Position numbers and translations under genes: made by a program. Positions 36,756-61,837 of a DNA stretch of 64,000 nt are shown here, in pieces. The notes under the pieces were generated by a model. The model did no database searches, had not been told where the DNA came from, and saw nothing but the letters and a program-made list of their open reading frames with translations. Position 1 is the stretch's first letter, and each line of letters starts with the position of its first letter. The DNA comes from Escherichia coli (GTDB lineage: Bacteria; Pseudomonadota; Gammaproteobacteria; Enterobacterales; Enterobacteriaceae), in NCBI RefSeq assembly GCF_017348835.2, contig NZ_CP071375.1; one strand, given 5' to 3'.

Positions 36756-36773
36756 GAGCGCGTCTCAAATAGA

Positions 36774-37049: not shown

Positions 37050-37257
37050 ATTAAATACATCCTGTCTGCTGCGAACAATATCTGTAGTGAATATCAATAT
37101 CCATTGAAGGCGTCAGTATGGCTATTTTCTTGATGAATAAAAATAGCTTTATTCAGCCACCGCATTCATAACTTATATATTTTATTTATTAATTGGCTGT
37201 ATATATTTTTAAAATAAATGCTTTTGGGGGCTTCAGCGCCCCCAAAAGCGAGTGACA

Positions 37258-39243: not shown

Positions 39244-39535
39244 ATAAATCTCCATTTATCATTTATGTCGTAAATATGTAATCCATGCAAAATACGTCAT
39301 TTAAAGCTGGCGTTATCATAATTGGGAAATTGCGACTTTAATAAGTGGAAGTGTGAGCGGAACGCGCCATTTTATTAGGCATTTGTGCTGAAGAGGGAAA
39401 AGTACGCGAATTTATTATCTCTGCAAATAATATGAGGTGTTTTATATATTTATTATATATATTGTACTTCGGCAAATACTGAGCACAATTAATCAATGCA
39501 ACCGGTGTTTTTTATTAAAAAACGTACCGGAGCAA

Positions 39536-39813
39536 TGGGCGGTCATGTCGCTGGCACCGCAGGATTCTGTGTTGCTGTGCCAGCCTTTTATTCATGGTCA
39601 ATGAGTGAGGGGATTGATAAAGAAACCAGGTCGTCAGAGCGCACTGATTATCCGCATTACGCCAGTGAAGTTGCACTGGCTTTTGGTTCACGAGTGGTTG
39701 GCCTCGAACTGGCAAAAATGATTGTGGATGCGTGGCTGGGCGCACAGTACGAAGGTGGTCGTCATCAACAACGCGTGGAGGCGATTACGGCAATAGAGCA
39801 GCGGAGAAATTGA
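39536..39813 (+). pseudogene. rpiB: Ribose-5-phosphate isomerase B remnant: degraded 5' end and an internal in-frame deletion
   Basis: IDKETRSSERTDYPHYASEVALA resembles RpiB residues about 31-53, joined directly to the C-terminal FGSRVVGLELAKMIVDAWLGAQYEGGRHQQRVEAITAIEQRRN; the roughly 54-residue block between them, which holds the catalytic cysteine, is missing. Confidence 0.7.
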
Positions 39814-39881
39814 GATTCATCCACTACTTGCATGGATGAGTAATGACTAATGTGGATAGAGTTTCTTTTTGAGGTTGGCTA

Positions 39882-40211
39882 ATGAAACGCTTTCCGCTAT
39901 TTCTTTTATTCACCCTGCTCACGCTGTCCACCGTTCCGGCCCAGGCCGATATTATCGACGACACCATTGGCAATATTCAGCAGGCGATTAACGATGCTTA
40001 TAACCCTGACCGTGGGCGAGACTATGAAGATTCGCACGACGACGGCTGGCAGCGTGAAGTGAGCGACGATCGGCGCAGACAATATGACGACCGCCGCCGC
40101 CAGTTTGAAGATCGTCGCAGGCAACTGGACGATCGCCAGCGCCAGCTTGATCAGGAGCGTCGGCAGCTGGAGGATGAAGAGCGGAGAATGGAAGATGAGT
40201 ATGGGCGATGA
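39882..40211 (+). CDS. yjdP: Secreted small protein with charged DDRRRQ-type repeats
   Basis: 109-aa ORF; signal peptide MKRFPLFLLFTLLTLSTVPAQA; C-terminus of R/Q/D/E repeats. Confidence 0.85.
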   Translation: MKRFPLFLLFTLLTLSTVPAQADIIDDTIGNIQQAINDAYNPDRGRDYEDSHDDGWQREVSDDRRRQYDDRRRQFEDRRRQLDDRQRQLDQERRQLEDEERRMEDEYGR

Positions 40212-40253
40212 GGTAGGCTAGGGTGAGGGGGCCAGCGCGCACATTCCCTCTCA

Positions 40254-41012
40254 TCACGCCACCCCAATCTCCATCCCATCAAACCCGGCTTCAAACCCCG
40301 ACGGCAGTGCGTTTTCCATCAGCCACGCATCAAACTGGTGGCTGATATGGGTCAGAACCACGCGCGGCGAGCGGATAACCTGATTCAGCGCAAGCACGGT
40401 ATTTAAATCACAGTGATTACGCGGTGCATCCTCGCGCGGCGGGTGGCTGCAATCAATCACCATTACCTGCGGCTGATTATTGCGTAAAAATTTCAGCGTT
40501 TTTTCCGGCAAGCCAGCGGTGTCAGACAGCCACGCCACCCGGCTGTGCGCCGTTTCCAGCAGATAACCGAAGGTCAGTTTTGAGTGGTTGAGCGGCAGGG
40601 GCGTGACCTGCAACCCCTGCAAATCAAACACCACAAACGGTTCTACCGTGTGGCTGAAATCAAGCAGGCCCGGATGTTTAAACAGATCGTCGCAGCCCTG
40701 TTCATCCGGCGGGCCGTAAACCGGGATCGTATCGCCCACGCCCCAGCGCAGCGGAAACAGCCCCTGGACGTGATCCATATGGTAGTGCGTCAGCAAAAAC
40801 TGCTGGAACGATCCGGGCGACCAGCGATCGGCGAGATCGTGCAGCCCGGCGTCGATCAGGGTGATCGCCTCGTTAAACTTCACTACGCCGCTGCACGGCT
40901 GGCGGCGATAGTGCGGCGAGCGCCGCGCTCTGGCGCAGGCCGCGCACTCGCAGCCCCATGCCGGAACGCCCTGTGCGCCGCCGGTGCCGGTGAGCGTGAG
41001 GGTCAGGCTCAT
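40254..41012 (-). CDS. phnP: Phosphoribosyl 1,2-cyclic phosphate phosphodiesterase (metallo-beta-lactamase fold)
   Basis: 252 aa from [18 protein letters not shown] motif. Confidence 0.93.
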
Positions 41013-41013
41013 G

Positions 41014-41448
41014 TTACAGCGCCTTCGTGAAGCGGAAGTGGCTCTGCTCGTAGCCTTCACGCAGGTAAAAACGGTGCGCGTCGTGGCGCTTCACGTTGGT
41101 CGAAAGCTCGGTCATTTCGGCCCCGGCCTGGCGGGCTTCTTCTTCTGCCCACGCTAGCAATTTACTGCCGACGTTCAGGCCGCGCGCCTGCGGCATCACC
41201 ACCAGCTCCTGAATTTCGCCGATCCAGTTGACATGATGCAGATGAAACTGCAAATGCAGGCCGATCATACCGACAACTTCGCCATCCAGCAGCGCCAGAT
41301 GGTAGCGCATGTTTGGGTCACGCAGGTTGGCGTTAAAGCCCACGCGAAACGCGTGATGGTCAAACTCCGCCTGTTTTAGCTCACAAATCAGCGCGTAAAC
41401 CGCGTCGGTGTCGTACTGTGTGGCCGGGCGAAGCTCACAAGCAGGCAT
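41014..41448 (-). CDS. phnO: Aminoalkylphosphonate N-acetyltransferase (GNAT)
   Basis: 144-aa [24 protein letters not shown]... Confidence 0.93.
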
Positions 41449-41992
41449 GGTGTTTCTCCTTCTGATGGATCAGCGTCAGCAGCGTGTCGACCGACTGGCG
41501 CAGGCTGCCGTCATTATTGAGCGTATGGCAATCCTGAGGAGTATAGCGGGCGGCGCGCGCCAGCCGGGCGTTAATTTCACTGGCGTTTTCACGACCACGG
41601 TTTTCCAGGCGCTGGCGCAGGATCTCTGGCGACACCTGTAAGCAGATGGGCAGCAGCGCCGATGCATAGCGTGCCCGCGCCTGTGGCAGATGGGCGCGTG
41701 AGCCGTTGACCAGCACGTCGAATCCGGCGTGCAGCCAGAGGTCTATCTCGACGCCGACGCCATAATACAGGCCGTTGGCGTGCCAGCTTAAGGCCAGTAG
41801 GTTCTGCCCCGCGCGGGTAAAAAACTCCTGCTCGCTCAGGGCGATATGGTTTTCGATTCCGGCGCTGGCGTCGCGCGTGATGTAGCGATGTGCCACCAGT
41901 AGCTGAGTTTGTTCCCGCAGGCGGAGTTCCGCCAGCAGGCTATCTTTCCCGGAGCCGGACGGCCCCATTAACCAAATCAGTTTTCCCATCAT
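41435..41992 (-). CDS. phnN: Ribose 1,5-bisphosphate phosphokinase
   Basis: 185-aa ORF with P-loop GPSGSGKDS. Confidence 0.93.
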
Positions 41993-43128
41993 CAGAACAC
42001 CCTTTTACCCTGACGCCAGACGTGGTCGATATGAATGTGATTGCCCTTGCGATGCGCCAGCACCAGGTCCGCGCGTTTGCCCTCGCCAATCACCCCGCGA
42101 TCCTGGAGATTAAGCGCCTGCGCTGGATTTTTAGTCACCAGCTTCACCGCCTGCGGCAGCGTAAAGCGGTTGCTCTCGTCATCGGCGACGCGGAACGCCG
42201 CATCCAGCAGGCTGGCGGGGTAGTAGTCGGAAGAGAGGATATCCAGCAGGCCAAGCTGCGCCAGTTCACTGGCCGCCACGTTGCCGGAGTGCGAGCCGCC
42301 GCGCACGATATTTGGTGCACCCATCAGCACGTTCATGCCATGCTTGCGCGAGGCTTCCGCCGCTTCGAACGTAGTGGGAAATTCGGCGATCACACTGCCA
42401 AGCTGGTGGGATTCGGCAACGTGGGCGTGGGTGGCGTCATCGTGGCTGGCGAGCGCAATGTGTCGCGCGCGGCACATTGCGGCGATGGATTCGCGATTTG
42501 GCTGCGACCAGCGTGCAGCAAGCGCCAGCTGTTCCTCTTCATACTGCTGCATCTGCGCATCAGTAAGCGAGTATTTACCCTGATAATACTCGCGATACTT
42601 CTCGCGATTGGCGAACTGGCGCTGGCCCGGCGAGTGGTCCATTAGCGACACCAGCGTCACCGGCTCGCGCAGCACCAGTTTTTCAAACAGCGGCAGCGTG
42701 GTGTGATGCGGCAGTTCGCAGCGCAGATGCAGACGGTGCTCGGCGCGGTTGACGCCGCGTTTCTGCGTCTCTTCGATGGCGTTGATCATCTTCTCCAGAT
42801 TCTCCAGCCGATCGCCGCCGTCGCGCACGTCGCCAATTGCCACGGCGTCCAGTACGGTGGTGATGCCGCTCGCCACCATCAGCGCGTCGTGGCTGCTCAT
42901 CGCCGAGTGGGCAGGCCAGTCAACTTTCGGGCGCGGGGTGAAGAATTTATCCAGATTATCGGTATGCAGCTCAATCAGCCCCGGCAGCAGCCAGCCGCCT
43001 TCGCCGTCCATCGCCTCCGGCAGGCGGCTCTGGCTTTCGGCAAAGGCGCGGATTTCGCCATCCTGCATCTTCAGCGAACCGTGTACGACTTCGTTTTCCA
43101 GCACCAGTTTAACGTTATTGATAATCAT
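41992..43128 (-). CDS. phnM: Amidohydrolase-family triphosphate diphosphohydrolase
   Basis: 378-aa ORF; HTD metal-binding motif near N-terminus. Confidence 0.93.
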
Positions 43129-43805
43129 GCAGAGGCTCCCATTGGGTGCAGGCGGTCGGCGACATCATTGCGTACGGCTTCGTCATGGAAGATGCCGACG
43201 ATGGCTGCGCCACGGGCTTTGGCTTCGCGGATCAGTTCCACTACGGCGGCGCTGTTTTTAGCGTCCAGCGAGGCGGTAGGTTCGTCGAGCAGCAGAATGG
43301 GATAATCGACGATAAAGCCGCGGGCGATGTTGACGCGCTGCTGTTCGCCGCCGGAGAAGGTCGATGGTGCCAGGTGCCACAGGCGTTCCGGCACGTTCAG
43401 GCGGGTGAGCAGACGCGCGGCTTTAGCGGCGCAGACTTCACGCGGAACGCCGGTATCGAGCAGCGGTTGCATCACCACTTCCAGTGCTGAGATACGCGGG
43501 ATGACGCGCAGAAACTGGCTCACCCAGCCGACGGTGGTTTTGCGGATTTCCACCACTTTGCGCGCTGGCGCAGTGACCAGGTCAACCCATTCGTCGCCGT
43601 GTTTGATCTGGATTTTCCCTTCGTCGGGCAGATAGTTGGCGTACAGCGAGCGCAGCAGGGTTGATTTGCCGCTGCCGGAGTGGCCGTGGAGCACCACGCA
43701 TTCGCCCGCGTTGACGGTGAGCGAGGCACGTTGTAAGACGGGCAGGCGCACGCCGTTTTGCTGGTGCAGGATGAAGGTTTTACTGACGTTTTGTACGTTA
43801 ATCAT
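43125..43805 (-). CDS. phnL: C-P lyase ABC-type ATPase subunit
   Basis: 226 aa from [11 protein letters not shown]; Walker [10 protein letters not shown]; the ORF-track upstream extension covers a REP and is not coding. Confidence 0.92.
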
Positions 43806-43825
43806 TTTTCGCCTCGTGGTTCGGG

Positions 43826-43912
<87 letters not shown>

Positions 43913-43915
43913 GGC

Positions 43916-44674
43916 TCAATTCTGCAAAACCGATGACACCAGCAGCTGGGTGTACGGATGATGCGGGTCGTCGAGCACGCGGTCGGTTAACCCACTCTCC
44001 ACCACCTGCCCCTGCTTCATCACCAGCAAACGGTCCGCCAGCAGGCGGGCGACGCCTAAATCATGGGTGACAATCACCACCGCCAGGTTCAGCTCCACCA
44101 CCAGGCCGCGCAGCAGGTCGAGCAGGAGCGCCTGTACCGACACATCCAGCCCGCCGGTTGGCTCGTCCATAAACACCAGCTTCGGATGCGTCACCAGGTT
44201 GCGGGCAATCTGCAAACGTTGCTGCATGCCGCCGGAAAAGGTGGTCGGCAGGTCGTCGATACGGTTGGCGGGAATTTCCACCTCTTCCAGCCACTTCTGC
44301 GCGGTGGCGCGAATATCGCCGTAATGACGCGCCCCGGTCGCCATCAGCCGCTCGCCGATATTGCCGCCTGCCGAGACCTGGCGGCGCAGGCCGTCGAGCG
44401 GATGCTGATGCACCACGCCCCATTCGGTGCGCAGCAGGCGACGGCGGTCGGCCTCGCTCATGCCATAGAGGGAACGGTTTTCATAGTGAATCTCCCCCTG
44501 CTGCGGCGTCAGACGCGCGGAAATTGATTTCAGCAGCGTGGTCTTCCCGGAGCCGGATTCCCCGACAATGCCCAGCACTTCCCCCGGCCATAAATCAAAA
44601 GAGACATCGCTAAAGCCTTTGCCCGGCGCGTAAAGGTGGGTCAGGTTATTGACCGAAAGTAACGGTTGATTCAT
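43916..44674 (-). CDS. phnK: C-P lyase ABC-type ATPase subunit
   Basis: 252 aa from [15 protein letters not shown]; Walker [10 protein letters not shown]. Confidence 0.93.
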
Positions 44675-45516
44675 TGGCTTTTCGCCTCGCTCTGTTGGCG
44701 GCAATAATCGGTATCGGAGCAGACAAACATGCGGTTTCCGGCGTCATCCAGCACCACTTCATCAAGATAGCTGTGGGTCGATCCGCAGATGGCGCACGGC
44801 TCATCCCACTGCTGAACGGTGAACGGGTGATCCTCGAAATCGAGGCTTTCCACGCGGGTAAACGGCGGCACCGCATAGATGCGCTTCTCACGCCCCGCGC
44901 CGAACAGTTGCAGGGCGGGCATCATGTCCATTTTCGGGTTATCGAATTTCGGGATCGGCGACGGGTCCATTACGTAGCGCCCGTTCACCTTCACCGGATA
45001 GGCGTAGGTGGTGGCGATATGACCGAAGCGGGCGATATCTTCATACAGCTTCACCTGCATCACGCCGTACTCCTCCAGCGCGTGCATGGTGCGGGTTTCC
45101 GTTTCGCGCGGCTCGATAAAGCGCAGCGGTTCGGGGATCGGCACCTGGAAGATAATTATCTGATCTTCGGTCAGCGGCGTTTCGGGGATGCGGTGACGCG
45201 TCTGGATAACCGTCGCATCGTCCGTACATTCCGTGGTGTTCACCCCGGTCACGCGCTTAAAGAAGTTGCGAATCGATACGGCGTTGGTGGTGTCATCCGC
45301 GCCCTGGTCAATCACCTTCAACACGTCGCTTTCGCCAATCACGCTGGCGGTAAGCTGTATGCCGCCGGTTCCCCAGCCGTACGGCATTGGCATCTCGCGC
45401 CCGCCAAACGGTACCTGATAACCGGGGATCGCCACCGCTTTTAAGATGGCGCGGCGGATCATGCGTTTGGTCTGCTCGTCGAGGTAGGCAAAGTTGTAGC
45501 CGCTCAGATTAGCCAT
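44671..45516 (-). CDS. phnJ: Alpha-D-ribose 1-methylphosphonate 5-phosphate C-P lyase (radical SAM-like)
   Basis: 281 aa from MANLSGYNFAYLDEQTKR; C-terminal CAICGS...CSDTDYC cysteine motif. Confidence 0.93.
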   Translation of the reverse strand: MANLSGYNFAYLDEQTKRMIRRAILKAVAIPGYQVPFGGREMPMPYGWGTGGIQLTASVIGESDVLKVIDQGADDTTNAVSIRNFFKRVTGVNTTECTDDATVIQTRHRIPETPLTEDQIIIFQVPIPEPLRFIEPRETETRTMHALEEYGVMQVKLYEDIARFGHIATTYAYPVKVNGRYVMDPSPIPKFDNPKMDMMPALQLFGAGREKRIYAVPPFTRVESLDFEDHPFTVQQWDEPCAICGSTHSYLDEVVLDDAGNRMFVCSDTDYCRQQSEAKSQ

Positions 45517-46567
45517 GGTTCTGCTCCTGTTGCGGACGTTTGAGTAGCTCCAGTTCGGCCTGGAAATCGACGTAGTGCGGGAGTTTGAGGTGCGAGACAA
45601 AGCCTGCGGCTTCGACGTTGTCGGCATGCGCCAGCACGAACTCTTCATCCTGCGCCGGGCCTGTCGCGTGCTCGCCGTACTCCGGAGCCTGCAACGCACG
45701 ATCGACCAGCGCCATCGCTTTGCGCTCGCTCATGCCGAACACCAGCCCGTAGCCGCGCGTGAAATGCGGCGGTTCATCTGGAGGGTCGATAAAACCGTTG
45801 ACCATTTCACACTCGGTCATCAGCAGTTCGCCGACGTTCACCGCAAATCCCAGCTCTTCCGGCACAATCGACACGTCGATGTAACCACTGCGGATCTCGC
45901 CCGCGAACGGGTGATTGCGTCCGTAACCACGCTGGGTGGAGTAGGCCAGCGCCAGCAAATAGCCTTCGTCGCCGCGCATGAGCTGTTGCAGGCGGGAAGA
46001 ACGTGAGCAGGGGTAAACCGGCGGCGTGCGGGTGATGTCATCCGGCTGTGCGCCGCTATCCTCTTCAAACTTCGCCAGCCCCTGACGCGCCAGCAGGCTG
46101 AAAACGTGCGGCGACGGCTGTTGTTCGCTGTCGGCGGTGGTCAGCGTCGGCGCTTCGCCGTTTGCCAGCAGGGTGAAATCGAGCAGGCGATGGGTGTAGT
46201 CGTAGGTTGGGCCAAGCAGTTGGCCGCCGGGAATGTCTTTATAAACGGCGGAGATACGCCGTTCGAGACGCATCCCGGTGGTGTCGAGCGGCTCGCTTAC
46301 CGCGAGTTTCGCCAGCGTGGTGCGGTAGGCGCGCAGCAGGAAAATTGCTTCGACGTTATCGCCGCTGGCCTGTTTCAGCGCCAGCGCCGCCAGTTCGCGG
46401 TCGGCAATGCCGCCTTCGGTCATCACGCGATCTACCGCAAGATTAAGCTGCTGTTCAATCTGGGCGACGCTCAGTTCAGGCAAATCGGTATCGCCCCGGC
46501 GTCGGCTCTCTTGCAGGGCGTGGGCGGCATCGATCGCCTTTTCGCCCCCTTTCACGGCAACGTACAT
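45509..46567 (-). CDS. phnI: C-P lyase core complex subunit PhnI
   Basis: 354 aa from [18 protein letters not shown]; start overlaps phnH stop. Confidence 0.93.
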   Translation of the reverse strand: MYVAVKGGEKAIDAAHALQESRRRGDTDLPELSVAQIEQQLNLAVDRVMTEGGIADRELAALALKQASGDNVEAIFLLRAYRTTLAKLAVSEPLDTTGMRLERRISAVYKDIPGGQLLGPTYDYTHRLLDFTLLANGEAPTLTTADSEQQPSPHVFSLLARQGLAKFEEDSGAQPDDITRTPPVYPCSRSSRLQQLMRGDEGYLLALAYSTQRGYGRNHPFAGEIRSGYIDVSIVPEELGFAVNVGELLMTECEMVNGFIDPPDEPPHFTRGYGLVFGMSERKAMALVDRALQAPEYGEHATGPAQDEEFVLAHADNVEAAGFVSHLKLPHYVDFQAELELLKRPQQEQNHG

Positions 46568-47151
46568 CAGCACACCTCCACATGAGTGGTTCGGGGGATA
46601 GCCAGCAGTCGCTCGCCGCAGGTCAGGATCAGGTCGATGCCGAGCGGGAACGGGTGCGGGCGCTCGGTGAGTTCGTGCAAAATGCACTCCGGCAGCTGCG
46701 GGGCGATCATTCGTTCTTCGGCAATGCCCGCGCCGGTGAGACGCAACATGCGCCCGCCGCTCAGGCTGGCGACCTGTAAAATCAGCGTTGCGCCCGCTTC
46801 CGGCGCAACGGCGGTGCCGGTGGAAAGGGCGTTAAGCTGTTCGCTGGAAATCGCCTCATCCGTTACCGCGAAGGTCGCCTGTTCCGGCTGGCTGACCAGC
46901 GGCGCGTTGGTATGAAAACGCAGGCTCTGGCTGACGATATCGTTACTTAATGGCGCGGAAAGCCACACCGGCGTGTCGTTATCGGCCAGCGTCAGCAGCA
47001 CGCTGGTGGTGGCGATATTCAGCGGCTGCCAGCCGCGTTTGAGCTGATGCAGGGCGACAATCACGCCCGGCTCGCTCATGGCCTTTAACAGGCGACGAAA
47101 ACTGTGCTGGGCATCCTGCACAGGAAGCATAAAAGCGGTTTCCAGGGTCAT
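46567..47151 (-). CDS. phnH: C-P lyase core complex subunit PhnH
   Basis: 194-aa [32 protein letters not shown]... Confidence 0.93.
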
Positions 47152-47600
47152 GCGTTGTCTCCGCGAACCATCGTAAAGAAGTCGACCCGGCTGGCGTTCA
47201 CTTCGGCCTGGCGTGCGGCAATGCGTGCCATACGGTCAGCGTCCAGCGGGGCAATAAGGGTTTCTGATAAGTTTTGAAAGTGGCGAGATTGCTGCATCAG
47301 CGCGTCGATCAGCGCGCAGCGTTCGGCGTGCTGTTTGTCGCGCCCCAGCACCCAGCTGTAGCCGAGCGTGCCGTCAGTCAGGCGTACTGCGGCGCGGGTA
47401 AGCGTGGCGTCGCCGGCAAAAAAGCGTTCGCCGGTGCCGCCCATCCGCGCCTGAATCTGTACCAGGCCAGTTTCAGCGGCGCGGATCACCTCATAGTCGG
47501 CGGTGATGTTCAGCGCGTTCAGGCAGGCTGCCAGTTCTGCCGGTTGGCTGTGTGCCAGTACGGACATCCAGTGCTGGCGGGTCGCGGTATCTGCGTGCAT
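47148..47600 (-). CDS. phnG: C-P lyase core complex subunit PhnG
   Basis: 150-aa [28 protein letters not shown]... Confidence 0.93.
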
Positions 47601-48326
47601 TCAGTGCTCCATAGTAAATTCAATCATGTCGGCGCGCGTCAGGCTGACGGAGTACTCCGCCGGGCTGCTTTCACCGTCACGGTGGTTAAGGGTGCGCACG
47701 CACAGCAGCGGCGACATATTCGGGATTTCAAGACGCTGGCACTCTTTGGCCTGGGCGCGGCGGGCGCTGATCCGCGTCTGGCTGCGGCGCAGTGCAATCC
47801 CCGTTTGCTCGCGCAGAAAATCGTGCAGCGAGCCGCTGTCGAAGCGTTGCAGCGTCGGCCAGAGGGTGAGGTCCGCGAAGTAGTGGTCGATTAAACAGAG
47901 CGCGACGCCGTTGACCCGGCGCAGGGTGCGCAGGTGGATAACGTTCTCGCCCTCGGCGATACCCAGCGCGTCTGCCACGTGACCGGAGGCCGGGCGCAGC
48001 ACAGACAGCAGTTTTTCGCTGGTGGGATGGCTCCCCTGATCCAGCAGGTTCTGGCTAAAACGCGCCTGGGCGTTGAGCGGGTAATCGAACGGGCGCATCA
48101 GCACCAGCACGCCGACGCCCTGACGGCGCTGTACCCAGCCTTTTTCCACCAGTTGGTCGATGGCGCGGCGCAGGGTGTGGCGGTTCACCTCAAAGCGCGC
48201 TGCCAGTTGCTGCTCGGCGGGAAGATAGTCGCCGCAGCGGTAGTGTTGACGAAGCTCCTGCTCAAGTTTTGCGGCTATCTCCTGATAGCGTGTTGGGTAG
48301 CTGGTCGGATGTGTAGACAAGTGCAT
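47601..48326 (-). CDS. phnF: GntR-family transcriptional regulator of the phn operon
   Basis: 241 aa from MHLSTHPTSYPTRYQEIAAKLEQEL; N-terminal winged HTH. Confidence 0.92.
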   Translation of the reverse strand: MHLSTHPTSYPTRYQEIAAKLEQELRQHYRCGDYLPAEQQLAARFEVNRHTLRRAIDQLVEKGWVQRRQGVGVLVLMRPFDYPLNAQARFSQNLLDQGSHPTSEKLLSVLRPASGHVADALGIAEGENVIHLRTLRRVNGVALCLIDHYFADLTLWPTLQRFDSGSLHDFLREQTGIALRRSQTRISARRAQAKECQRLEIPNMSPLLCVRTLNHRDGESSPAEYSVSLTRADMIEFTMEH

Positions 48327-48346
48327 AGATATCAATGCCTCGCTTA

Positions 48347-49126
48347 TCAGATAAAGTGCTTACGCAACCGTTGAGAGAGGAAATCCAGCAGGCTGACCGT
48401 GACGATAATCAGCACCATCAGGGCGCAGGTTTGCTGGAACTGGAAACCGCGAATCGCTTCCCACAGGGTGACGCCGATCCCGCCCGCGCCGACCATGCCG
48501 ACGACGGTCGCCGAGCGGACGTTGGATTCGAAGCGATAGAGGGAGTAGGAGATCAGCAGCGGCATCACCTGTGGCAGCACGCCGTAGAGGATCTCTTCCA
48601 GCTTGTTAGCGCCGGTGGCGCGAATGCCTTCCACCGGGCCGGGTTCGATCGCTTCCACCGCTTCAGAAAGCAGTTTGGAGAGCACGCCGGTGGTGTGGAT
48701 AAACAGCGCCAGCACGCCAGCGAACGGGCCGAGGCCGACGGCGACCACGAACAGCATGGCGAAGACCATTTCGTTAATGGCGCGGCAGGCGTCCATCAGG
48801 CGGCGAACGGGCTGGTAAACCCACCACGGCACCAGGTTTTCGGCGCTCATCAGGCCGAAGGGGATGGAGAGAACCACCGCCAGCGCGGTGCCCCAGACGG
48901 CGATTTGCAGCGTGACGAGCATTTCGGTGAGGTAATCCTGCCACTGGCTGAAATCAGGCGGGAAGAAGTCGGCGGCGAAAGTCGCCATGTTGCCGCCGTC
49001 TTTAATCAGCGTGAGCGGGGCCATTTCCGCGCCCTGCCACGAGACGACCAACACGGCGAGAACAATGGCCCAGCTCAGAAGCGAGAACCAGCTGCGCTTG
49101 GGTGGGGCGATGGTGATGGTTTGCAT
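48347..49126 (-). CDS. phnE: Phosphonate ABC transporter permease, apparently intact
   Basis: Uninterrupted 259 aa from [22 protein letters not shown]...; six hydrophobic segments. Confidence 0.9.
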
Positions 49127-49140
49127 GTTTGGCTCCGGTC

Positions 49141-49231
49141 TGTAGGCCGGATAAGGTGCTTGCACCGCATCCGGCATCAACGCCTGCACATTGTCGGATG
49201 CGACGCCGGGGCGTCTTATCCGACCTACGAT
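49141..49231. repeat. REP pair in the phnD-phnE spacer
   Basis: gtaggccggataaggtgcttgcaccgcatccggca and cggatgcgacgccggggcgtcttatccgacctac. Confidence 0.85.
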
Positions 49232-50248
49232 TTACTGCACCGCTTTACTCACCGAACTCATCGCGCTTAAAGCGTTGTTCAGGCGGTCCAGGTCATCCAG
49301 CTGCGCCTGAATCTCGGTGGTTTTTGCCAGCTTGTCCTGCTCATTCAGTCCTTTATTGCTTTTCACGCCCTGCATCTCTTTAAACAGCGCGAGCTGGCGA
49401 ATCGGCACCAGTTGCAGGTCGCTGGAAGCGCGGAACGGCGCCCAGCCCAGGCGTTCCAGCACCGCTTTTTCTTCCGGCGTTTTGCCGTAGTTCATAAAGA
49501 AGTCGTAGATCTTGTCTTTGGTGGTTTCGGAAAGGTTTTTACGCCAGACGATCGGATCGCCTGGGATCAGCGGCGACTTCCAGATCACTTTCAGTTCTTT
49601 CAACTTCTCCGGCGCGGAGGTTTTCAGCTTGTCGAGGTTTTCGGTGTTGTTAGTGGCAACATCCACCTGCTTGTTGGCGACGGCCAGCGCGTTGGTTTCA
49701 TGCCCGGCGTTGACGGTGCGCTTGAAGTCGCTGGCGGAGATATTGTTTTTGGCGAAGACGTAGTAGCCGGGGACGAGGAAGCCAGAGGTGGAGTTAGGAT
49801 CGCCATTGCCGAAGGTGAGATCTTTCCGCTTCGCCAGCAGATCGTTCAGGTTGTTGATCGGACTGTCTTTGTTGACGATCAACACGCTCCAGTAACCCGG
49901 CGATCCGTCCGCCGCGACGGTCTGAGCGAAGACCTGACCGTTGGCGCGATCCACTGCTTCCATCGCCGACAGGTTGCCGTACCAGGCGATATCCACTTTA
50001 TTGAAGCGCATCCCCTGGATAATGCCCGCGTAATCCGGGGCAAAGAAGGCGTTGACCTTCACGCCCAGCTTCTTCTCCATATCCTGTAAGAACGGCGTCC
50101 ATTGCGGTTTCAGGTTTTGCTGTGATTCCGTTGAAATAATGCCGAAATTCAGCGCCTTTTCCTGCTCTTCGGCGTGCGCCGGGGTTAACAGGGTGCTGAG
50201 GCTGAACATGCTGGTGAAGGCCAGCGAGGCAATTATCTTAGCGTTCAT
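49232..50248 (-). CDS. phnD: Phosphonate ABC transporter periplasmic binding protein
   Basis: 338-aa ORF with signal peptide MNAKIIASLAFTSMFSLSTLLTPAHA. Confidence 0.95.
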   Translation of the reverse strand: MNAKIIASLAFTSMFSLSTLLTPAHAEEQEKALNFGIISTESQQNLKPQWTPFLQDMEKKLGVKVNAFFAPDYAGIIQGMRFNKVDIAWYGNLSAMEAVDRANGQVFAQTVAADGSPGYWSVLIVNKDSPINNLNDLLAKRKDLTFGNGDPNSTSGFLVPGYYVFAKNNISASDFKRTVNAGHETNALAVANKQVDVATNNTENLDKLKTSAPEKLKELKVIWKSPLIPGDPIVWRKNLSETTKDKIYDFFMNYGKTPEEKAVLERLGWAPFRASSDLQLVPIRQLALFKEMQGVKSNKGLNEQDKLAKTTEIQAQLDDLDRLNNALSAMSSVSKAVQ

Positions 50249-50272
50249 TCGTTTTCCTCAATGATGGGGATG

Positions 50273-51061
50273 TCAGGCAGCTTTCGCGTTCTCTTCGACG
50301 CGGTTAATGCTGCGGTAGAGATGGTCAAAACGTTCGTTATCAAACTGTTGGCTGCTGCCGTCGTAGAAGACGTGCCCCTGACGAAGGGCGACGATGCGTT
50401 CGCAGTAGCGCAGGGCGTAATCCACCTGATGCAGCGTGACGACCACGGTGATGCCGTCGTTCTGATTGATGTCGCGCAGGGTGTCCATCACGATGCGGGC
50501 GGATTCCGGGTCCAGCGAGGCGATCGGTTCGTCCGCCAGAATCACCTTCGCCTGCTGCATCAGCGCGCGGGCAATCGCCACACGCTGCTGCTGTCCGCCG
50601 GAGAGGGTGGAAACGCGCTGATGGGCAAAATGCACCATGCCAACGCGGGTCAGCGCCTGTAACGCGCGCTGTTTCTGCTCGCGGGTGAACCAACTAAAAC
50701 AGGTGCGCCAGAACGGCGTGCTGCCGAGCGCGCCAATCAGCACGTTCTCCAGTACGCTTAGGCGATTCACCAGGTTGAATTGTTGGAAGATGTAGCCGGT
50801 GTTGGCGCGGCTTTTGCGGATATCGCGCGCCAGGCGGCCATTTTGCTGGACGGTGCGGCCCAGCAGCTCGACGCGGCATTCTGGCTTTTTATCGCCGACA
50901 ATCAGGCCGCTTAAGTGACGTAAAAGGGTGGATTTGCCGGAACCGGACGGCCCAAGCAGAGCCACCATTTCACCATGATGGATATTCAGATCAACCGCGT
51001 GCAGCGCCTGATGCTGATTGAAGGTTTTGCTCAGTTGTTCGACGCGGATAATCGTTTGCAT
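50273..51061 (-). CDS. phnC: Phosphonate ABC transporter ATP-binding protein
   Basis: 262-aa ORF; Walker [13 protein letters not shown] signature LSGGQQQR. Confidence 0.95.
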
Positions 51062-51100
51062 GATGCAGCCTCCCTAAAAAAGTGGCTCCATCGTGGCGGA

Positions 51101-51138
51101 TTATTGTGACGATTTGGTTAATTAAAAGTGACTAACAG
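51101..51138 (-). promoter_or_regulatory. Pho box (PhoB binding site) of the phnC promoter
   Basis: Minus-strand CTGTTAG-tcac-TTTTAAT-taac-CAAATCG-tcac: 7-bp direct repeats at 11-bp periodicity just upstream of phnC. Confidence 0.7.
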
Positions 51139-51192
51139 ATGAAGAGTTAACGGGAATTCGATGACAGTGCGGGAGGGCGGGCCTCCCGCGGA

Positions 51193-51636
51193 TTATTGCG
51201 TTGGTTGTTGTTTGACGACATTAATCATCCACGGTACGCCAAATTTATCGGTGACTTTGCCGAAGCCATGCGCCCAGAAAGTTTCCTGCCAGGCCATTTC
51301 GATTTTTCCGTTAGCTGCAAGGTTATCAAACCAGCGTTTTCCTTCTTCGACCTGTTGCGAATCGAGCACCAGCGTAAAACCGGAGTAGCTGGCTTTTCCT
51401 GACGGTATAGCATCGCTCATCATGATGTCGCTTCCGGCAATACGCACGTTGGCATGAGCGATGGCAGTATCGGGAAATTGCATTCCGGAAGGGCAGCCTT
51501 CGGCGCTGTCCTGCGCTGATTTTGGCATTTCGCCGAAGCTGATTTTATAGAGCAGTTCCGCGCCCAACGTACGTTGATAATAAGCAATTGCGTCGGCACA
51601 GTTACCGGCAAAAGAGAGGTAGGGACTTAACGGCAT
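51193..51636 (-). CDS. yjdN: Glyoxalase/VOC-like protein (formerly phnB)
   Basis: 147-aa ORF MPLSPYLSFAGNCADAIAYYQRTLGAELL... Confidence 0.88.
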   Translation of the reverse strand: MPLSPYLSFAGNCADAIAYYQRTLGAELLYKISFGEMPKSAQDSAEGCPSGMQFPDTAIAHANVRIAGSDIMMSDAIPSGKASYSGFTLVLDSQQVEEGKRWFDNLAANGKIEMAWQETFWAHGFGKVTDKFGVPWMINVVKQQPTQ

Positions 51637-51699
51637 GATGGTGACCTCAGTTAAGAGAAGCCAGTTAAGTGTAGTTCGAAATTTATACAGATGAGAGGG

Positions 51700-52578
<879 letters not shown>

Positions 52579-52595
52579 TACTGATCACAATACAA

Positions 52596-52931
52596 TCAGT
52601 TCTTTTTCACAAACTCAGATTTCAGTTTCATCGGACCAAAACCGTCGATTTTGCAATCGATGTTATGGTCGCCTTCAACCAGGCGGATGTTTTTCACTTT
52701 GGTGCCAATTTTCAGCATCGAAGAGCTACCTTTCACCTTCAGATCTTTAATGATGGTAACGCTGTCGCCGTCAGCCAGCAGATTGCCGTTAGCATCTTTA
52801 ACGATCAGCTCGTCGCTTTCCTGTGCAGGTTCTGCGTCGTTCCATTCGTAGGCACATTCCGGGCAGATGTACATGCCGTTATCTTCGTAGGTGTATTCGG
52901 AGTTGCATTTTGGGCAGTGTGGTAATGACAT
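52596..52931 (-). CDS. yjdM: Zinc-ribbon protein YjdM (formerly phnA)
   Basis: 111 aa from [30 protein letters not shown]. Confidence 0.9.
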
Positions 52932-53332
52932 GTGGATTTCCTCAAAAGTCAGCAGGGCAAAAGCGCCAAAAAACGGCAGATTGCCGAAAAAGGCCGCAAT
53001 TATACACAAAATCCCTGAGTTTGTCGGGGGTACTGCTGATTTTAGACGACGATCGTTTTCATTTGAAAGGAAACGCAAAAAGAAAATAATCTTTTTGCCT
53101 CCATTTATTATTTAAGATAAGGTTAATGCTCTACTTGTTCTTTTTTTTATTCACATGATATTTTTATCTTTCTGACGTTTTAAACGTATCGGAAGATGTT
53201 ATTTATTCTAATAAAAAACAACACTCTAAATATAAAATTATTTCTTGCAGTAATTATAAAAGCCGAAAACAGAACTCAAAAACAATCTGGCTAAATAAAA
53301 GTAATAAAATTTGCTTTAAGGAAGAATTTTCT

Positions 53333-55561
53333 ATGTACACACAGACCCTGTATGAGTTAAGTCAGGAGGCTGAACGCCTGTTACAGCTTTCTCGCCAACA
53401 GTTGCAGTTACTGGAAAAAATGCCTCTCTCTGTACCCGGAGACGATGCGCCACAACTGGCTTTACCCTGGAGTCAGCCTAATATCGCCGAACGTCACGCG
53501 ATGCTGAATAATGAGTTGCGTAAAATTTCCCGACTGGAAATGGTGCTGGCAATTGTCGGTACCATGAAAGCAGGGAAATCAACCACCATTAATGCCATTG
53601 TTGGTACGGAGGTTCTGCCTAATCGCAATCGCCCAATGACTGCCCTGCCGACGCTTATTCGCCATACACCCGGGCAAAAAGAACCGGTACTGCATTTTTC
53701 ACATGTCGCGCCAATCGATTGTTTAATTCAACAATTACAACAACGCCTGCGTGATTGCGATATTAAGCATCTGACCGATGTGCTGGAAATAGATAAAGAT
53801 ATGCGTGCGCTTATGCAGCGGATCGAAAATGGCGTCGCTTTCGAAAAATATTATCTGGGTGCCCAGCCTATTTTTCATTGTCTGAAAAGTTTGAATGATT
53901 TGGTGCGACTGGCGAAGGCGCTGGACGTCGATTTTCCTTTTTCTGCTTACGCCGCCATTGAGCATATTCCCGTGATTGAAGTGGAGTTTGTCCATCTGGC
54001 GGGGCTGGAGAGTTATCCCGGTCAGTTGACGTTACTGGATACCCCCGGGCCAAATGAAGCCGGGCAACCGCATCTGCAAAAAATGCTTAACCAGCAGCTG
54101 GCACGCGCCTCGGCGGTACTGGCGGTGCTGGATTATACGCAACTGAAATCGATCTCCGATGAAGAGGTCCGTGAGGCGATTTTGGCGGTGGGGCAATCGG
54201 TGCCGCTGTATGTGCTGGTCAATAAGTTCGATCAACAGGATCGTAACAGTGACGACGCCGACCAGGTGCGGGCACTGATTTCCGGGACGCTGATGAAAGG
54301 CTGTATTACGCCACAGCAGATATTTCCGGTGTCGTCGATGTGGGGCTACCTGGCGAATCGGGCGCGCCATGAGTTAGCCAACAACGGTAAGTTACCAGCG
54401 CCAGAGCAACAACGCTGGGTGGAAGATTTTGCCCATGCCGCGCTCGGCAGGCGCTGGCGTCATGCCGATCTGGCGGACCTCGAACATATTCGTCATGCTG
54501 CCGATCAGTTGTGGGAAGATTCGCTGTTCGCCCAGCCAATTCAGGCGCTGCTTCATGCCGCTTACGCTAACGCCTCGTTGTATGCTCTGCGATCTGCCGC
54601 GCATAAACTGTTGAATTACGCGCAGCAGGCGCGGGAATACCTGGATTTTCGTGCGCACGGGTTAAACGTCGCTTGTGAACAATTGCGGCAAAATATCCAT
54701 CAGGTCGAAGAAAGTTTGCAGCTATTGCAACTCAATCAGGCGCAGGTGAGCGGCGAGATTAAACATGAAATCGAGCTGGCCCTGACCTCCGCCAACCACT
54801 TTCTGCGTCAACAGCAAGATGCGCTGAATGCGCAGTTTGCCGCCTTGTTTCAGGATGATTCGGAGCCGTTAAGCGAGATTCGTACCCGCTGTGAGACACT
54901 GTTACAGACGGCGCAGAACACCATCAGTCGCGACTTTACGCTGCGTTTTGCCGAGCTGGAATCCACCCTTTGCCGGGTGTTAACCGATGTTATTCGCCCC
55001 ATTGAGCAACAAGTCAAAATGGAATTGAGCGAGTCAGGGTTTCGTCCTGGGTTTCATTTTCCTGTTTTTCACGGCGTAGTTCCCCACTTCAACACTCGCC
55101 AGCTGTTCAGTGAAGTCATTTCGCGCCAGGAAGCAACGGACGAGCAGAGCACGCGTTTAGGCGTTGTGCGTGAGACTTTTTCGCGCTGGTTGAATCAGCC
55201 CGACTGGGGACGGGGAAATGAGAAATCCCCGACAGAAACGGTTGATTACAGTGCGTTGCAACGAGCATTAAGCGAAGAGGTCGATCTTTATTGCCAACAA
55301 ATGGCTAAAGTTCTGGCAGAGCAGGTCGATGAATCTGTTACGGCAGGCATGAATACTTTTTTCGCTGAGTTCGCTTCATGTTTGACGGAATTACAGACGC
55401 GTTTACGCGAAAGTCTGGCTCTGCGTCAACAAAATGAATCGGTGGTCAGGCTGATGCAGCAGCAATTGCAGCAGACTGTGATGACTCACGGCTGGATTTA
55501 CACCGACGCCCAGCTGTTACGCGATGATATTCAAACACTTTTCACGGCAGAACGATATTGA
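53333..55561 (+). CDS. crfC: Dynamin-like GTPase (clamp-binding sister replication fork colocalization protein)
   Basis: 742-aa ORF; P-loop GTMKAGKST near residue 75; long coiled-coil C-terminus; AT-rich upstream region. Confidence 0.9.
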   Translation: MYTQTLYELSQEAERLLQLSRQQLQLLEKMPLSVPGDDAPQLALPWSQPNIAERHAMLNNELRKISRLEMVLAIVGTMKAGKSTTINAIVGTEVLPNRNRPMTALPTLIRHTPGQKEPVLHFSHVAPIDCLIQQLQQRLRDCDIKHLTDVLEIDKDMRALMQRIENGVAFEKYYLGAQPIFHCLKSLNDLVRLAKALDVDFPFSAYAAIEHIPVIEVEFVHLAGLESYPGQLTLLDTPGPNEAGQPHLQKMLNQQLARASAVLAVLDYTQLKSISDEEVREAILAVGQSVPLYVLVNKFDQQDRNSDDADQVRALISGTLMKGCITPQQIFPVSSMWGYLANRARHELANNGKLPAPEQQRWVEDFAHAALGRRWRHADLADLEHIRHAADQLWEDSLFAQPIQALLHAAYANASLYALRSAAHKLLNYAQQAREYLDFRAHGLNVACEQLRQNIHQVEESLQLLQLNQAQVSGEIKHEIELALTSANHFLRQQQDALNAQFAALFQDDSEPLSEIRTRCETLLQTAQNTISRDFTLRFAELESTLCRVLTDVIRPIEQQVKMELSESGFRPGFHFPVFHGVVPHFNTRQLFSEVISRQEATDEQSTRLGVVRETFSRWLNQPDWGRGNEKSPTETVDYSALQRALSEEVDLYCQQMAKVLAEQVDESVTAGMNTFFAEFASCLTELQTRLRESLALRQQNESVVRLMQQQLQQTVMTHGWIYTDAQLLRDDIQTLFTAERY

Positions 55562-56436
55562 CCAAGACGTTACTTGACGGCCCCGGTCGCGTGCTGGAGT
55601 CGGTTTATCCCCGCTTTTTAGTGGATCTGGCGCAGGGCGATGATGCCCGCCTTCCACAAGCCCATCAGCAGCAGTTTCGTGAACGACTGATGCAGGAACT
55701 TCTTGCGCGCGTGCAGCTTCAGACATGGACGAACGGCGGCATGTTAAATGCGCCGCTTAGCCTGCGTCTGACATTGGTGGAAAAACTGGCGTCGATGCTG
55801 GATCCCGGTCATCTGGCACTGACGCAGATCGCGCAGCATCTGGCGCTGCTGCAAAAAATGGATCACCGCCAGCACTCTGCTTTCCCGGAGCTCCCCCAGC
55901 AAATTGCCGCCTTGTATGAGTGGTTTTCAGCCCGTTGTCGCTGGAAGGAAAAGGCATTAACGCAACGAGGCCTACTGGTGCAGGCAGGTGAACAGAGCGA
56001 GCAAATTTTTACCCGCTGGCGTGCTGGGGCGTATAACGCCTGGTCGTTGCCTGGGCGCTGTTTTATCGTTCTCGAAGAGTTGCGTTGGGGGGCATTTGGC
56101 GATGCCTGTCGTCTGGGAAGCCCGCAAGCGGTGGCGTTGTTGCTGGGTGATTTGCGCGTGAAAGCGACACAACATCTGGCAGAGAGTATCAATGCGGCCC
56201 CGACCACGCGTCACTATTACCATCAGTGGTTTGCCTCTTCGACCGTTCCGACGGGCGGGGATCATGCTGATTTTTTAAGTTGGCTGGGAAAGTGGACCAC
56301 GGCAGATAAACAACCCGTTTGCTGGTCAGTGACCCAACGTTGGCAAACTGTCGCGCTGGGGATGCCACGACTCTGTTCAGCGCAGCGTTTGGTGGGGGCA
56401 ATGGTCGAGGAAATCTTCTCTGTAAATTTGGCGTAA
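55558..56436 (+). CDS. yjcZ: Uncharacterized protein YjcZ, translationally coupled to crfC
   Basis: 292-aa ORF overlapping the crfC stop by 4 nt. Confidence 0.88.
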   Translation: MTKTLLDGPGRVLESVYPRFLVDLAQGDDARLPQAHQQQFRERLMQELLARVQLQTWTNGGMLNAPLSLRLTLVEKLASMLDPGHLALTQIAQHLALLQKMDHRQHSAFPELPQQIAALYEWFSARCRWKEKALTQRGLLVQAGEQSEQIFTRWRAGAYNAWSLPGRCFIVLEELRWGAFGDACRLGSPQAVALLLGDLRVKATQHLAESINAAPTTRHYYHQWFASSTVPTGGDHADFLSWLGKWTTADKQPVCWSVTQRWQTVALGMPRLCSAQRLVGAMVEEIFSVNLA

Positions 56437-56699
56437 ATAATCAGTTACATCAATGAGTCCTAAACGAAATCCATGTGTGAAGTTGATCACAAATTTAAAC
56501 ACTGGTAGGGTAAAAAGGTCATTAACTGCCCAATTCAGGCGTCAACTGGTTTGATTGTACATTCCTTAACCGGAGGGTGTAAGCAAACCCGCTACGCTTG
56601 TTACAGAGATTGCATCCTGCAATTCCCGCTCCCCTTTTGCGGCCGTCGCGCTGATTTTTCTGGCGTTTGCGGAAATGGGCCAACTCTGCGAGGAAAGCT

Positions 56700-58202
56700 A
56701 TGCTGAAAAGGAAAAAAGTAAAACCGATTACCCTTCGTGATGTCACCATTATTGATGACGGTAAACTGCGTAAAGCCATTACCGCAGCATCACTGGGTAA
56801 TGCAATGGAATGGTTCGATTTTGGTGTTTATGGTTTTGTTGCTTACGCATTAGGTAAAGTTTTTTTCCCGGGGGCTGACCCCAGCGTGCAGATGGTTGCT
56901 GCACTTGCCACGTTCTCCGTTCCCTTTCTGATTCGACCGCTTGGCGGACTCTTCTTTGGTATGTTGGGCGATAAATATGGTCGCCAGAAGATCCTCGCTA
57001 TCACTATTGTGATTATGTCGATCAGTACGTTCTGTATTGGCTTAATACCATCCTACGACACGATTGGTATTTGGGCACCGATTCTGCTGTTGATCTGTAA
57101 GATGGCACAAGGTTTCTCGGTCGGCGGTGAATATACCGGGGCGTCGATATTTGTTGCGGAATACTCCCCTGACCGTAAACGTGGCTTTATGGGCAGCTGG
57201 CTGGACTTCGGTTCTATTGCCGGGTTTGTGCTGGGTGCGGGCGTGGTGGTGTTAATTTCGACCATTGTCGGCGAAGCGAACTTCCTCGACTGGGGCTGGC
57301 GTATTCCGTTCTTTATTGCTCTGCCGTTAGGGATTATCGGGCTTTACCTGCGCCATGCGCTGGAAGAAACTCCGGCGTTCCAGCAGCATGTTGATAAACT
57401 GGAACAGGGCGACCGCGAAGGTTTGCAGGATGGCCCGAAAGTCTCGTTTAAAGAGATTGCCACCAAACACTGGCGCAGCCTGTTGACATGTATTGGTCTG
57501 GTAATTGCCACCAACGTGACTTACTACATGTTGCTGACCTATATGCCGAGTTATTTGTCACATAACCTGCATTACTCCGAAGACCACGGGGTGCTGATTA
57601 TTATCGCCATTATGATCGGTATGCTGTTTGTTCAGCCGGTGATGGGCTTGCTGAGTGACCGTTTTGGCCGTCGTCCGTTTGTGCTACTTGGTAGTGTTGC
57701 CCTGTTTGTGTTGGCGATCCCGGCGTTTATTCTGATTAACAGTAACGTCATCGGTCTGATTTTTGCCGGGTTACTGATGCTGGCGGTGATCCTTAACTGC
57801 TTTACGGGCGTTATGGCTTCTACCTTGCCAGCGATGTTCCCGACGCATATCCGTTACAGCGCGCTGGCGGCGGCATTTAATATTTCGGTGCTGGTTGCCG
57901 GTCTGACGCCAACATTGGCGGCCTGGCTGGTCGAAAGCTCGCAGAATCTGATGATGCCAGCCTATTACCTGATGGTAGTGGCGGTGGTTGGTTTAATCAC
58001 CGGCGTAACCATGAAAGAGACGGCAAATCGTCCGTTGAAAGGTGCAACACCGGCGGCGTCAGATATACAGGAAGCGAAGGAAATTCTCGTCGAGCATTAC
58101 GATAATATCGAGCAGAAAATCGATGATATTGACCACGAGATTGCCGATTTGCAGGCGAAACGTACCCGCCTGGTGCAGCAACATCCGCGAATTGATGAAT
58201 AA
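56700..58202 (+). CDS. proP: Proline/glycine betaine:H+ symporter (MFS) with C-terminal coiled coil
   Basis: 500 aa from MLKRKKVKPITLRDVTIIDDGKLRKAI; 12 TM segments; coiled-coil tail. Confidence 0.96.
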   Translation: MLKRKKVKPITLRDVTIIDDGKLRKAITAASLGNAMEWFDFGVYGFVAYALGKVFFPGADPSVQMVAALATFSVPFLIRPLGGLFFGMLGDKYGRQKILAITIVIMSISTFCIGLIPSYDTIGIWAPILLLICKMAQGFSVGGEYTGASIFVAEYSPDRKRGFMGSWLDFGSIAGFVLGAGVVVLISTIVGEANFLDWGWRIPFFIALPLGIIGLYLRHALEETPAFQQHVDKLEQGDREGLQDGPKVSFKEIATKHWRSLLTCIGLVIATNVTYYMLLTYMPSYLSHNLHYSEDHGVLIIIAIMIGMLFVQPVMGLLSDRFGRRPFVLLGSVALFVLAIPAFILINSNVIGLIFAGLLMLAVILNCFTGVMASTLPAMFPTHIRYSALAAAFNISVLVAGLTPTLAAWLVESSQNLMMPAYYLMVVAVVGLITGVTMKETANRPLKGATPAASDIQEAKEILVEHYDNIEQKIDDIDHEIADLQAKRTRLVQQHPRIDE

Positions 58203-58255
58203 GCTGAAACAGATGGCCTGATGTGACGCTGTCTTATCAGACCAACAATTGAACT

Positions 58256-58272
58256 CTTAAGGTTCACTTAAT
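58256..58272 (+). promoter_or_regulatory. Candidate PmrA (BasR) box upstream of pmrR
   Basis: CTTAAG-gttca-CTTAAT direct hexamer repeat with 5-bp spacer, 45 bp upstream of the pmrR ATG. Confidence 0.65.
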
Positions 58273-58316
58273 CTCTGACGCGCATACTCTCCTCCAGGTT
58301 AACGGAGGAGAGTGCA

Positions 58317-58406
58317 ATGAAAAACCGTGTTTATGAAAGTTTAACTACCGTGTTCAGCGTGCTGGTGGTCAGCAGCTTTCTTTATATCTGGTTTGCCACG
58401 TACTGA
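58317..58406 (+). CDS. pmrR: 29-aa membrane peptide PmrR
   Basis: ATG...TGA encoding MKNRVYESLTTVFSVLVVSSFLYIWFATY; overlaps the 3' end of basS on the opposite strand by 25 bp. Confidence 0.8.
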   Translation: MKNRVYESLTTVFSVLVVSSFLYIWFATY

Positions 58407-59473: not shown

Positions 59474-59482
59474 CAGATTCAA

Positions 59483-60151
59483 TTAGTTTTCCTCATTCGC
59501 GACCAGCATATAGCCAAAGCCGCGCACGGTGCGGATACGGGCTTTGCCCACTTTGTCGCGCAGATTGTGGATATGCACTTCCAGGGTGTTGGTCGAGGGT
59601 TCATTGTCCCAGTTATAGATGTCGTTGTAGAGAATTTCCCGATGTACCGGACTGCCTGCTTTGAGCATTAACCGTGACAGCAGAGCATATTCTTTGGGCG
59701 TCAGAATCAACTCTTCACCGCCCATCCATACCTGACGGCGACCCATATTCAGCGTCAGATTGCCAACAATCAGCTCACTTTCGCCCTGATTATTATGGCG
59801 TCGTAGCAGGGCGCGGATACGGGCGTGTAACTCTTCCAGCGCAAAAGGCTTCACCAGATAGTCATCGGCACCGACATCCAGCCCGGCGATTTTGTCGGTC
59901 AGCGTATCGCGAGCGGTGAGGATCAGTACCGGCAGGGTGTATTTTTTCTGCCGGATACGGGCGAGAAAATGCAGTCCATCTTCGTCGGGTAACCCTAAAT
60001 CCAGTACTACCAGGCTGTAATGACCGGCCTCAAGGCTTTGTTCCGCCATCCGCGCGGTTGTCACGCCATCGCACGCGTAGCCTTCGGTTTGCGCCGCCAG
60101 AATCAGTCCCTGCAATAACAGCGTATCGTCTTCAACAATCAGAATTTTCAT
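59483..60151 (-). CDS. basR: Two-component response regulator BasR/PmrA (OmpR family)
   Basis: 222-aa [22 protein letters not shown]... Confidence 0.96.
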
Positions 60152-61791: not shown

Positions 61792-61837
61792 CACGGTGTT
61801 TCCATCGAACAAAGTGCGCATATGCTCGCAAAGCAAA

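Follow-up and report, generated by a model that had tools for sequence, protein, structure and literature searches.

Does an open phnE reading frame make an Escherichia coli strain a user of phosphonates? The phnC promoter is activated by PhoB under phosphate limitation, PhnF is the repressor of the phn operon, and the C-P lyase pathway is made up of PhnGHIJKLM together with PhnN, PhnO and PhnP. According to the literature, phosphonates enter through PhnCDE, as does orthophosphate. The question is raised by a stretch of 64,000 nucleotides of E. coli DNA (hereafter the window, meaning the whole stretch), for which a first-pass annotation had noted an intact phnE and had expected a strain able to use phosphonates without the need for a revertant. 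Here, we explore the phn operon of the window gene by gene, together with its promoter and its counterparts in complete E. coli genomes.

The phnE frame and its 8-bp repeat

The coordinates of all the features discussed are listed in Table 1. The phnE gene is intact, as had been claimed: its frame runs from ATG to TGA without an internal stop, a GGAG lies 6 nt 5' of the ATG, and its product matches TIGR01097, the PhnE equivalog, over residues 16-258 with 312 bits (cut-off 216.7). Residues 88-258 constitute the ABC-permease domain (PF00528, BPD_transp_1), and an EAA-type cytoplasmic loop is encoded downstream of the 8-bp repeat. Two other ORFs at this position were set aside. One starts from an upstream GTG (49189) and would give a longer phnE, which merely reads through the REP element of the phnD-phnE gap; the other is a plus-strand ORF over phnE (48335-49270, 311 aa), which has no Pfam match, lies opposite a strongly supported gene and is regarded as a shadow ORF.

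It had also been stated that phnE of K-12 carries a frameshifting 8-bp insertion, and an alignment with that allele had been proposed as a check. The alignment bears the statement out, since K-12 reads GCTGGCGT-GCTGGCGT-GCTGGCGC and the window GCTGGCGT-GCTGGCGC, a difference of 8 bp, so that the window has one unit fewer and an open frame. The repeat unit, its position (gene nt 406 onward) and its flanks are all shared with the cryptic K-12 allele; however, that allele has three units, and the third one shifts the frame into a stop at codon 190, ahead of the EAA-type loop (OFF), whereas the two units of the window keep the gene in frame (ON). The K-12 gene is annotated as a 'frameshifted' pseudogene in RefSeq. 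With four units, the stop comes at codon 166. The tandem repeat would be a slippage-prone tract, of which two units are ON, and three, as in K-12, or four are OFF. The gene in the window shows the marks of a phase-variable phnE, namely tandem units within the ORF whose number sets the frame and differs among E. coli strains. PMC6469041 credits the phase-variable repeat and the cryptic K-12 allele to Iqbal et al. (2004). In PMC6469041 and PMC4759930, loss of an 8-bp unit through replication slippage is described as activating PhnCDE, and the papers that they cite report reversible switching of phnE for K-12 only.

Compared with the PhnE protein of E. coli B, and likewise with the translation of a K-12 revertant from which one unit has been removed, PhnE of the window differs only by V21I and A70L. 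Because 257 of its 259 residues are thus identical to these two proteins, we infer that the PhnCDE transporter is functional.

Then, how common is the in-frame state? The phnE gene is present in 5,394 of 5,426 complete E. coli genomes, and the phn operon is found at a coverage of at least 80% in 5,385 of them. The alleles were told apart by an 8-nt gap, using probes across the repeat of 96 nt (window 48666-48761) and 104 nt, which matched about 4,920 complete genomes, about 470 being missed by such short probes. Among the probe-matched genomes, about 3,912 (about 80%) carry two units and about 1,005-1,009 (about 20%) carry the three units of the K-12 type, while four units occur in one genome, YZ22PE244, whose phnE bears a frameshift annotation. 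When the three-unit class was sampled at even intervals, about half of the genomes proved to be other than laboratory K-12 derivatives, and the carriers include isolates from pig, dog, human, chicken and seawater. The in-frame phnE is the ordinary, majority state in E. coli and sets the window strain apart in no way; the three-unit OFF allele, which about a fifth of complete genomes carry, is widespread beyond K-12. That phnE is intact in most E. coli is already known, with the K-12 defect as the textbook case, and a 'vast majority' of E. coli with functional phnE is mentioned by Stasi et al. (2019; PMC6469041).

Table 1. Features of the phn operon and its upstream region, numbered from the first nucleotide of the window.
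Feature	Coordinates	Strand	Description and evidence
phnC promoter region (Pho box), PhoB-dependent	51105..51138	-	contains CTGTTAGTCACTTTTAATTAAC as well as the ChIP-seq motif ATTAACCAAATCGTCACA (51105-51122)
phnC	50273..51061	-	ABC transporter ATPase, 262 aa; NF007438 596 bits (cut-off 365); Walker A, signature and Walker B motifs
phnD	49232..50248	-	periplasmic phosphonate-binding protein, 338 aa; TIGR03431 376 bits (cut-off 261); 1 substitution vs K-12
REP pair in the 105-nt phnD-phnE gap	49145..49225	+	Rfam naRNA4/REP, 69 bits
phnE	48347..49126	-	ABC permease, intact; ATG to TGA, 780 nt, 259 aa, 0 internal stops
Putative slippage tract in phnE, in-frame (ON)	48706..48721	-	two tandem 8-bp units GCTGGCGT GCTGGCGC, aligned against the 3 units of K-12 and the 4 of YZ22PE244
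phnF	47601..48326	-	GntR-family repressor, 241 aa; NF007486 518 bits (cut-off 363)
phnG	47148..47600	-	C-P lyase core subunit, 150 aa; TIGR03293 180 bits (cut-off 89)
phnH	46567..47151	-	C-P lyase core subunit, 194 aa; TIGR03292 205 bits (cut-off 91.5)
phnI	45509..46567	-	352 aa vs 354; PF05861 499.5 bits; two-codon in-frame deletion and L347P (K-12 numbering)
6-bp deletion site in phnI	45710..45718	-	one GCGATG unit left, then GCG; GCGATGGCGATGGCG in K-12 and almost all E. coli
phnJ	44671..45516	-	radical-SAM C-P lyase subunit, 281 aa; PF06007 500 bits
phnK	43916..44674	-	ABC ATPase of C-P lyase, 252 aa; TIGR02323 407 bits (cut-off 303)
phnK-phnL gap with REP pair	43806..43915	-	110 nt, two REP palindromes; K-12 gap equally long
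phnL	43125..43805	-	ABC ATPase of C-P lyase, 226 aa; TIGR02324 370 bits (cut-off 256)
phnM	41992..43128	-	RPnTP diphosphatase, 378 aa; NF011981 807 bits (cut-off 375)
phnN	41435..41992	-	ribose 1,5-bisphosphokinase, 185 aa; NF007485 354 bits (cut-off 153)
phnO	41014..41448	-	aminoalkylphosphonate N-acetyltransferase, 144 aa; NF007530 315 bits (cut-off 142); amino acids 100% identical to K-12
phnP	40254..41012	-	cyclic phosphodiesterase, 252 aa; TIGR03307 427 bits (cut-off 272)

Gene content, promoter and haplotype of the operon

From phnC to phnP (40254-51061), all 14 genes are present on one strand, each with an ATG start and without internal stops, and their order matches the annotation of PE164 and of K-12. 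The uninterrupted frames reported in the first-pass annotation are therefore real, although they hide a rare 6-bp deletion in phnI: the gene lengths are those of K-12 for 13 of the 14 genes, and phnI is 6 nt shorter. The tight coupling that it had described was found at 9 of the 13 junctions, with spacings between a 14-nt overlap and a 1-nt gap, and does not extend to the other four, with gaps of 24, 105, 20 and 110 nt; as in K-12, REP pairs occupy the two long gaps. The NCBIfam equivalog cut-offs are passed by 12 of the 14 products. For PhnI and PhnJ, no NCBIfam match was obtained among the models searched, and these two are identified instead by Pfam models PF05861 and PF06007 at about 500 bits, with cut-offs of 34.5 and 25 bits, respectively.

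The functional residues considered here are also in place. In PhnJ, Gly32 as well as Cys241, Cys244, Cys266 and Cys272, which we take to be the radical-SAM cysteines, are all found at equivalent positions in the window, and the equivalents of His219, His328 and His333 are kept in PhnI. The roles of these histidines and of PhnJ Gly32 are given in PMC9947105. Relative to K-12, the operon shows a nucleotide divergence of 3.8%, with 46 amino-acid substitutions, dS of 0.146 and dN/dS of 0.057; such values point to purifying selection on all 14 phn genes. PhnC accounts for 13 of the substitutions, which are clustered at residues 55-74. This patch (window 50870-50900) lies between Walker A and the Q-loop, where K-12 reads DKSVGSHIELL and the window differs; outside it, PhnC is near-identical to the K-12 protein.

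The operon of E. coli B and of the K-12 phnE+ revertant is the functional C-P lyase operon of Makino et al. (1991), cited in PMC6469041. The window shares with it the gene set, order, junctions, REP-filled gaps and promoter, as well as the two-unit phnE, and differs from it in the PhnC patch at residues 55-74, in the lack of two PhnI residues and in L347P; between E. coli B and the window, 2 of the 259 PhnE residues differ. We are highly confident that the window contains the canonical E. coli phnCDEFGHIJKLMNOP operon, with phnE in the two-unit ON state that is in the majority in the species.

A Pho box upstream of phnC had been noted as well, and it stands. The 108 nt upstream of the phnC ATG, from the yjdN terminator on, are identical to K-12 and include the 18-nt PhoB ChIP-seq motif reported upstream of phnC (Fitzgerald 2023, Table 1). 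The same table gives phnC RNA counts of 32,470 in the wild type and 13 in the delta-phoB strain, and the phnC Pho box is reported to be of low affinity. When the window was scanned with the consensus (CTGTCATAWAWCTGTCAY, no more than 3 mismatches), the phnC promoter was not matched, which agrees with the reported low affinity of the site. Since the consensus scan misses it, the Pho box is real through its identity to K-12 and not through motif strength. The sole consensus-like match in the window, at 16235-16252 (+) in the actP-yjcF intergenic region, has 3 mismatches and is at chance level, since 15 of 100 shuffles also contain one or more matches. Similarly, a scan of 39800-51700 for sigma-70 promoters and terminators gave no excess over shuffles and no site at the phnC promoter, the latter being expected because this is a PhoB-dependent promoter without a -35 box.

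As for its relatives, the window is 99.998% identical to PE164 over 61 kb (61,126 bases), with a single mismatch at 32739 (A vs G), which falls inside mdtP by coordinate mapping. After PE164 and F2_81, the best match to the operon among complete E. coli genomes is 97.3% identical. The phn-yjcS-mdtNOP side of the window (33000-51800) shares about 96% identity with K-12 or ETEC1738, and the crfC-eptA side (52500-64000) about 98.5-98.7%; for crfC, 2,040 records reach an identity of 99% or more, as against no more than 97.3% for the operon outside PE164 and F2_81. In comparison with at least one strain, yjcS and mdtNOP show the elevated divergence too. The operon of the window is a rare, divergent haplotype. 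A foreign origin of this haplotype was considered and set aside, in view of the dN/dS of 0.057 and the identical synteny.

Some other observations concern the surroundings of the operon. Between yjdM and yjdN, a REP array (51702-52581) comprises 8.8 tandem copies of a 100-bp REP-pair unit and nine Rfam naRNA4 (REP325) matches; the array is expanded in the window, because REP325 of K-12 has six repeats (PMC4550694). On the other side, the D-allose operon (alsRBACEK), located between rpiB and yjcS in K-12, is absent from 39255-39882, where a truncated rpiB-like ORF of 105 aa (39496-39813) remains beside yjcS; ETEC1738 is arranged alike. The aphA gene for the class B acid phosphatase (2512-3225, +), a further phosphorus-scavenging gene, is inactivated by an internal stop at codon 174 (AGDKPG*NTK) and is annotated as a pseudogene in PE164. 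Rfam matches elsewhere include the sRNAs sraL (11024-11164, -) and STnc630 (58248-58413, +), and the fdhF SECIS element (31546-31600, -).

A two-codon deletion in phnI

In phnI, K-12 reads GCGATG-GCGATG-GCG, encoding AMAMA, and the window reads GCGATG-GCG, encoding AMA, so that the gene is 1,059 nt long instead of 1,065 nt. The change from AMAMA to AMA would have arisen by slippage of the tandem GCGATG repeat, as the repeat structure suggests. AMAMA is invariant in 21 enterobacterial PhnI orthologues, and in 36 of 38 homologues, with identities as low as 34%, the segment E281-D291 has 11 residues, as against 9 in the window. The wild-type architecture of PhnI, that is, 354 aa with a fixed-length NE[RT]KA[IM]AMAxxD, is therefore not that of the window protein, in which the near-invariant E281 and K283 are out of register with the remainder of the helix by two residues.

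The structural setting can be read from the AF2 model of wild-type PhnI, built on an alignment of 38 diverse homologues, which has a pLDDT of 85 and matches 4xb6_C with a TM of 0.81. In this model, residues 281-294 form a helix straight after a beta-strand, with a local pLDDT of about 93. An AF2 model of the window protein from 22 close orthologues reached a pLDDT of 33 and was discarded. The window PhnI aligns over its full length with that of the solved E. coli C-P lyase core complex Phn(GHIJ)2 (PDB 4XB6, 7Z15-7Z19; 773 bits) and shares the Zn-site histidines with these structures; however, every solved PhnI chain has 354 aa with AMAMA, whereas the window protein has 352 aa with AMA.

The 6-bp deletion is the only difference between the window and its sister strain F2_81 across the 10,947 bp of the operon, and it must consequently be very recent. 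L347P (K-12 numbering) is a lineage substitution, common to the window and F2_81. Carriers of the deletion number at most about 12 among 5,364 genomes, at no less than 95% identity to a probe with the deletion. The same deletion is found on other haplotypes, in N39/N47 and in P13-6, so that at least three lineages are involved, and phnI of LR-24 shows an apparent expansion of the repeat. Another recurrent in-frame variant of phnI was also observed: several of the E. coli PhnI entries P0029 and P0033-P0046, of 329 aa, have a 25-residue in-frame deletion in a variable region (residues 133-157), and P0035 occurs on 38 contigs.

Would the strain use phosphonates?

Taken together, the operon of the window would lead from a PhoB-driven phnC promoter through import by PhnCDE to a C-P lyase half with a shortened PhnI. 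Whether that half works turns on the deletion, provided that the deletion is genuine. The window matches a single public assembly, PE164, and its sister F2_81 carries the normal phnI allele; the true PhnI might then have 354 aa, and the missing 6 bp would be an assembly or sequencing artefact. We consider this improbable, because the clean loss of one 6-bp non-homopolymer unit is atypical of consensus errors, and because the same deletion occurs in independent assemblies on the haplotypes of N39, N47 and P13-6, with an apparent expansion in LR-24.

If the deletion is genuine, it could have either of two outcomes. PhnI and PhnG form the central tetramer of the complex, and the Zn site provided by PhnI is essential for growth on phosphonate (PMC9947105). 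A strain with competent transport and a defective C-P lyase, whose shortened PhnI does not fold, does not join the Phn(GHIJ)2 complex or lacks catalytic activity and which is consequently Phn-minus, comes close to an even chance. The motif is strictly conserved in length and sequence, the helix that contains the site, just after a beta-strand, is modelled with confidence, and loss of phn function is common in E. coli, as exemplified by phnE in the OFF state in about 20% of genomes. However, the Zn ligands His328 and His333 as well as His219 are retained, a deletion at the N-terminus of a helix is sometimes absorbed by the preceding loop, and the Pfam score of PhnI still amounts to about 500 bits. 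The opposite outcome, in which PhnI tolerates the loss of its AM pair and the entire operon functions, with growth on methylphosphonate without a revertant, appears possible but somewhat doubtful. It draws on the open frames, the catalytic residues and the family scores far over the cut-offs, on the nature of the deletion, which removes one of the repeated A-M pairs near the N-terminal end of the helix and regenerates AMA, and on its presence in N39/N47 and P13-6. It has to contend with the fixed length of E281-D291 and the invariant AMAMA, with the displacement of E281 and K283 relative to the remaining helix, and with the rarity of the deletion, which, being very recent, selection has yet to test.

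It is conservation that suggests a damaging effect of the PhnI deletion, and since the deletion recurs in at least three lineages, it might be tolerated; the chances that it impairs C-P lyase may be put as evenly balanced. Therefore, normal growth of the window strain on methylphosphonate as sole phosphorus source is a prospect for which the chances fall a little short of even. The expectation of a Phn+ strain that needs no revertant is accordingly upheld in one part, as uptake is plausible with phnE in frame, and weakened in the other, as cleavage of the C-P bond is not secure with two codons missing from phnI.

The phnI variant and the wide spread of OFF alleles are modest side results. The tandem GCGATG of phnI could be a second, in-frame slippage hotspot of the phn operon, which silently disables C-P lyase, though we think this rather unlikely. 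If so, slippage in phnI would recurrently remove, and occasionally add, an Ala-Met pair with every frame staying open. Together with the OFF state of phnE in about one-fifth of the genomes, phosphonate catabolism would then be cheaply and repeatedly switched off in host-associated E. coli, and annotation at the level of ORFs would overestimate the number of Phn+ strains. Open frames throughout do not amount to a functional pathway, as the operon of the window, which differs from that of F2_81 by the deletion in the PhnI motif alone, illustrates.
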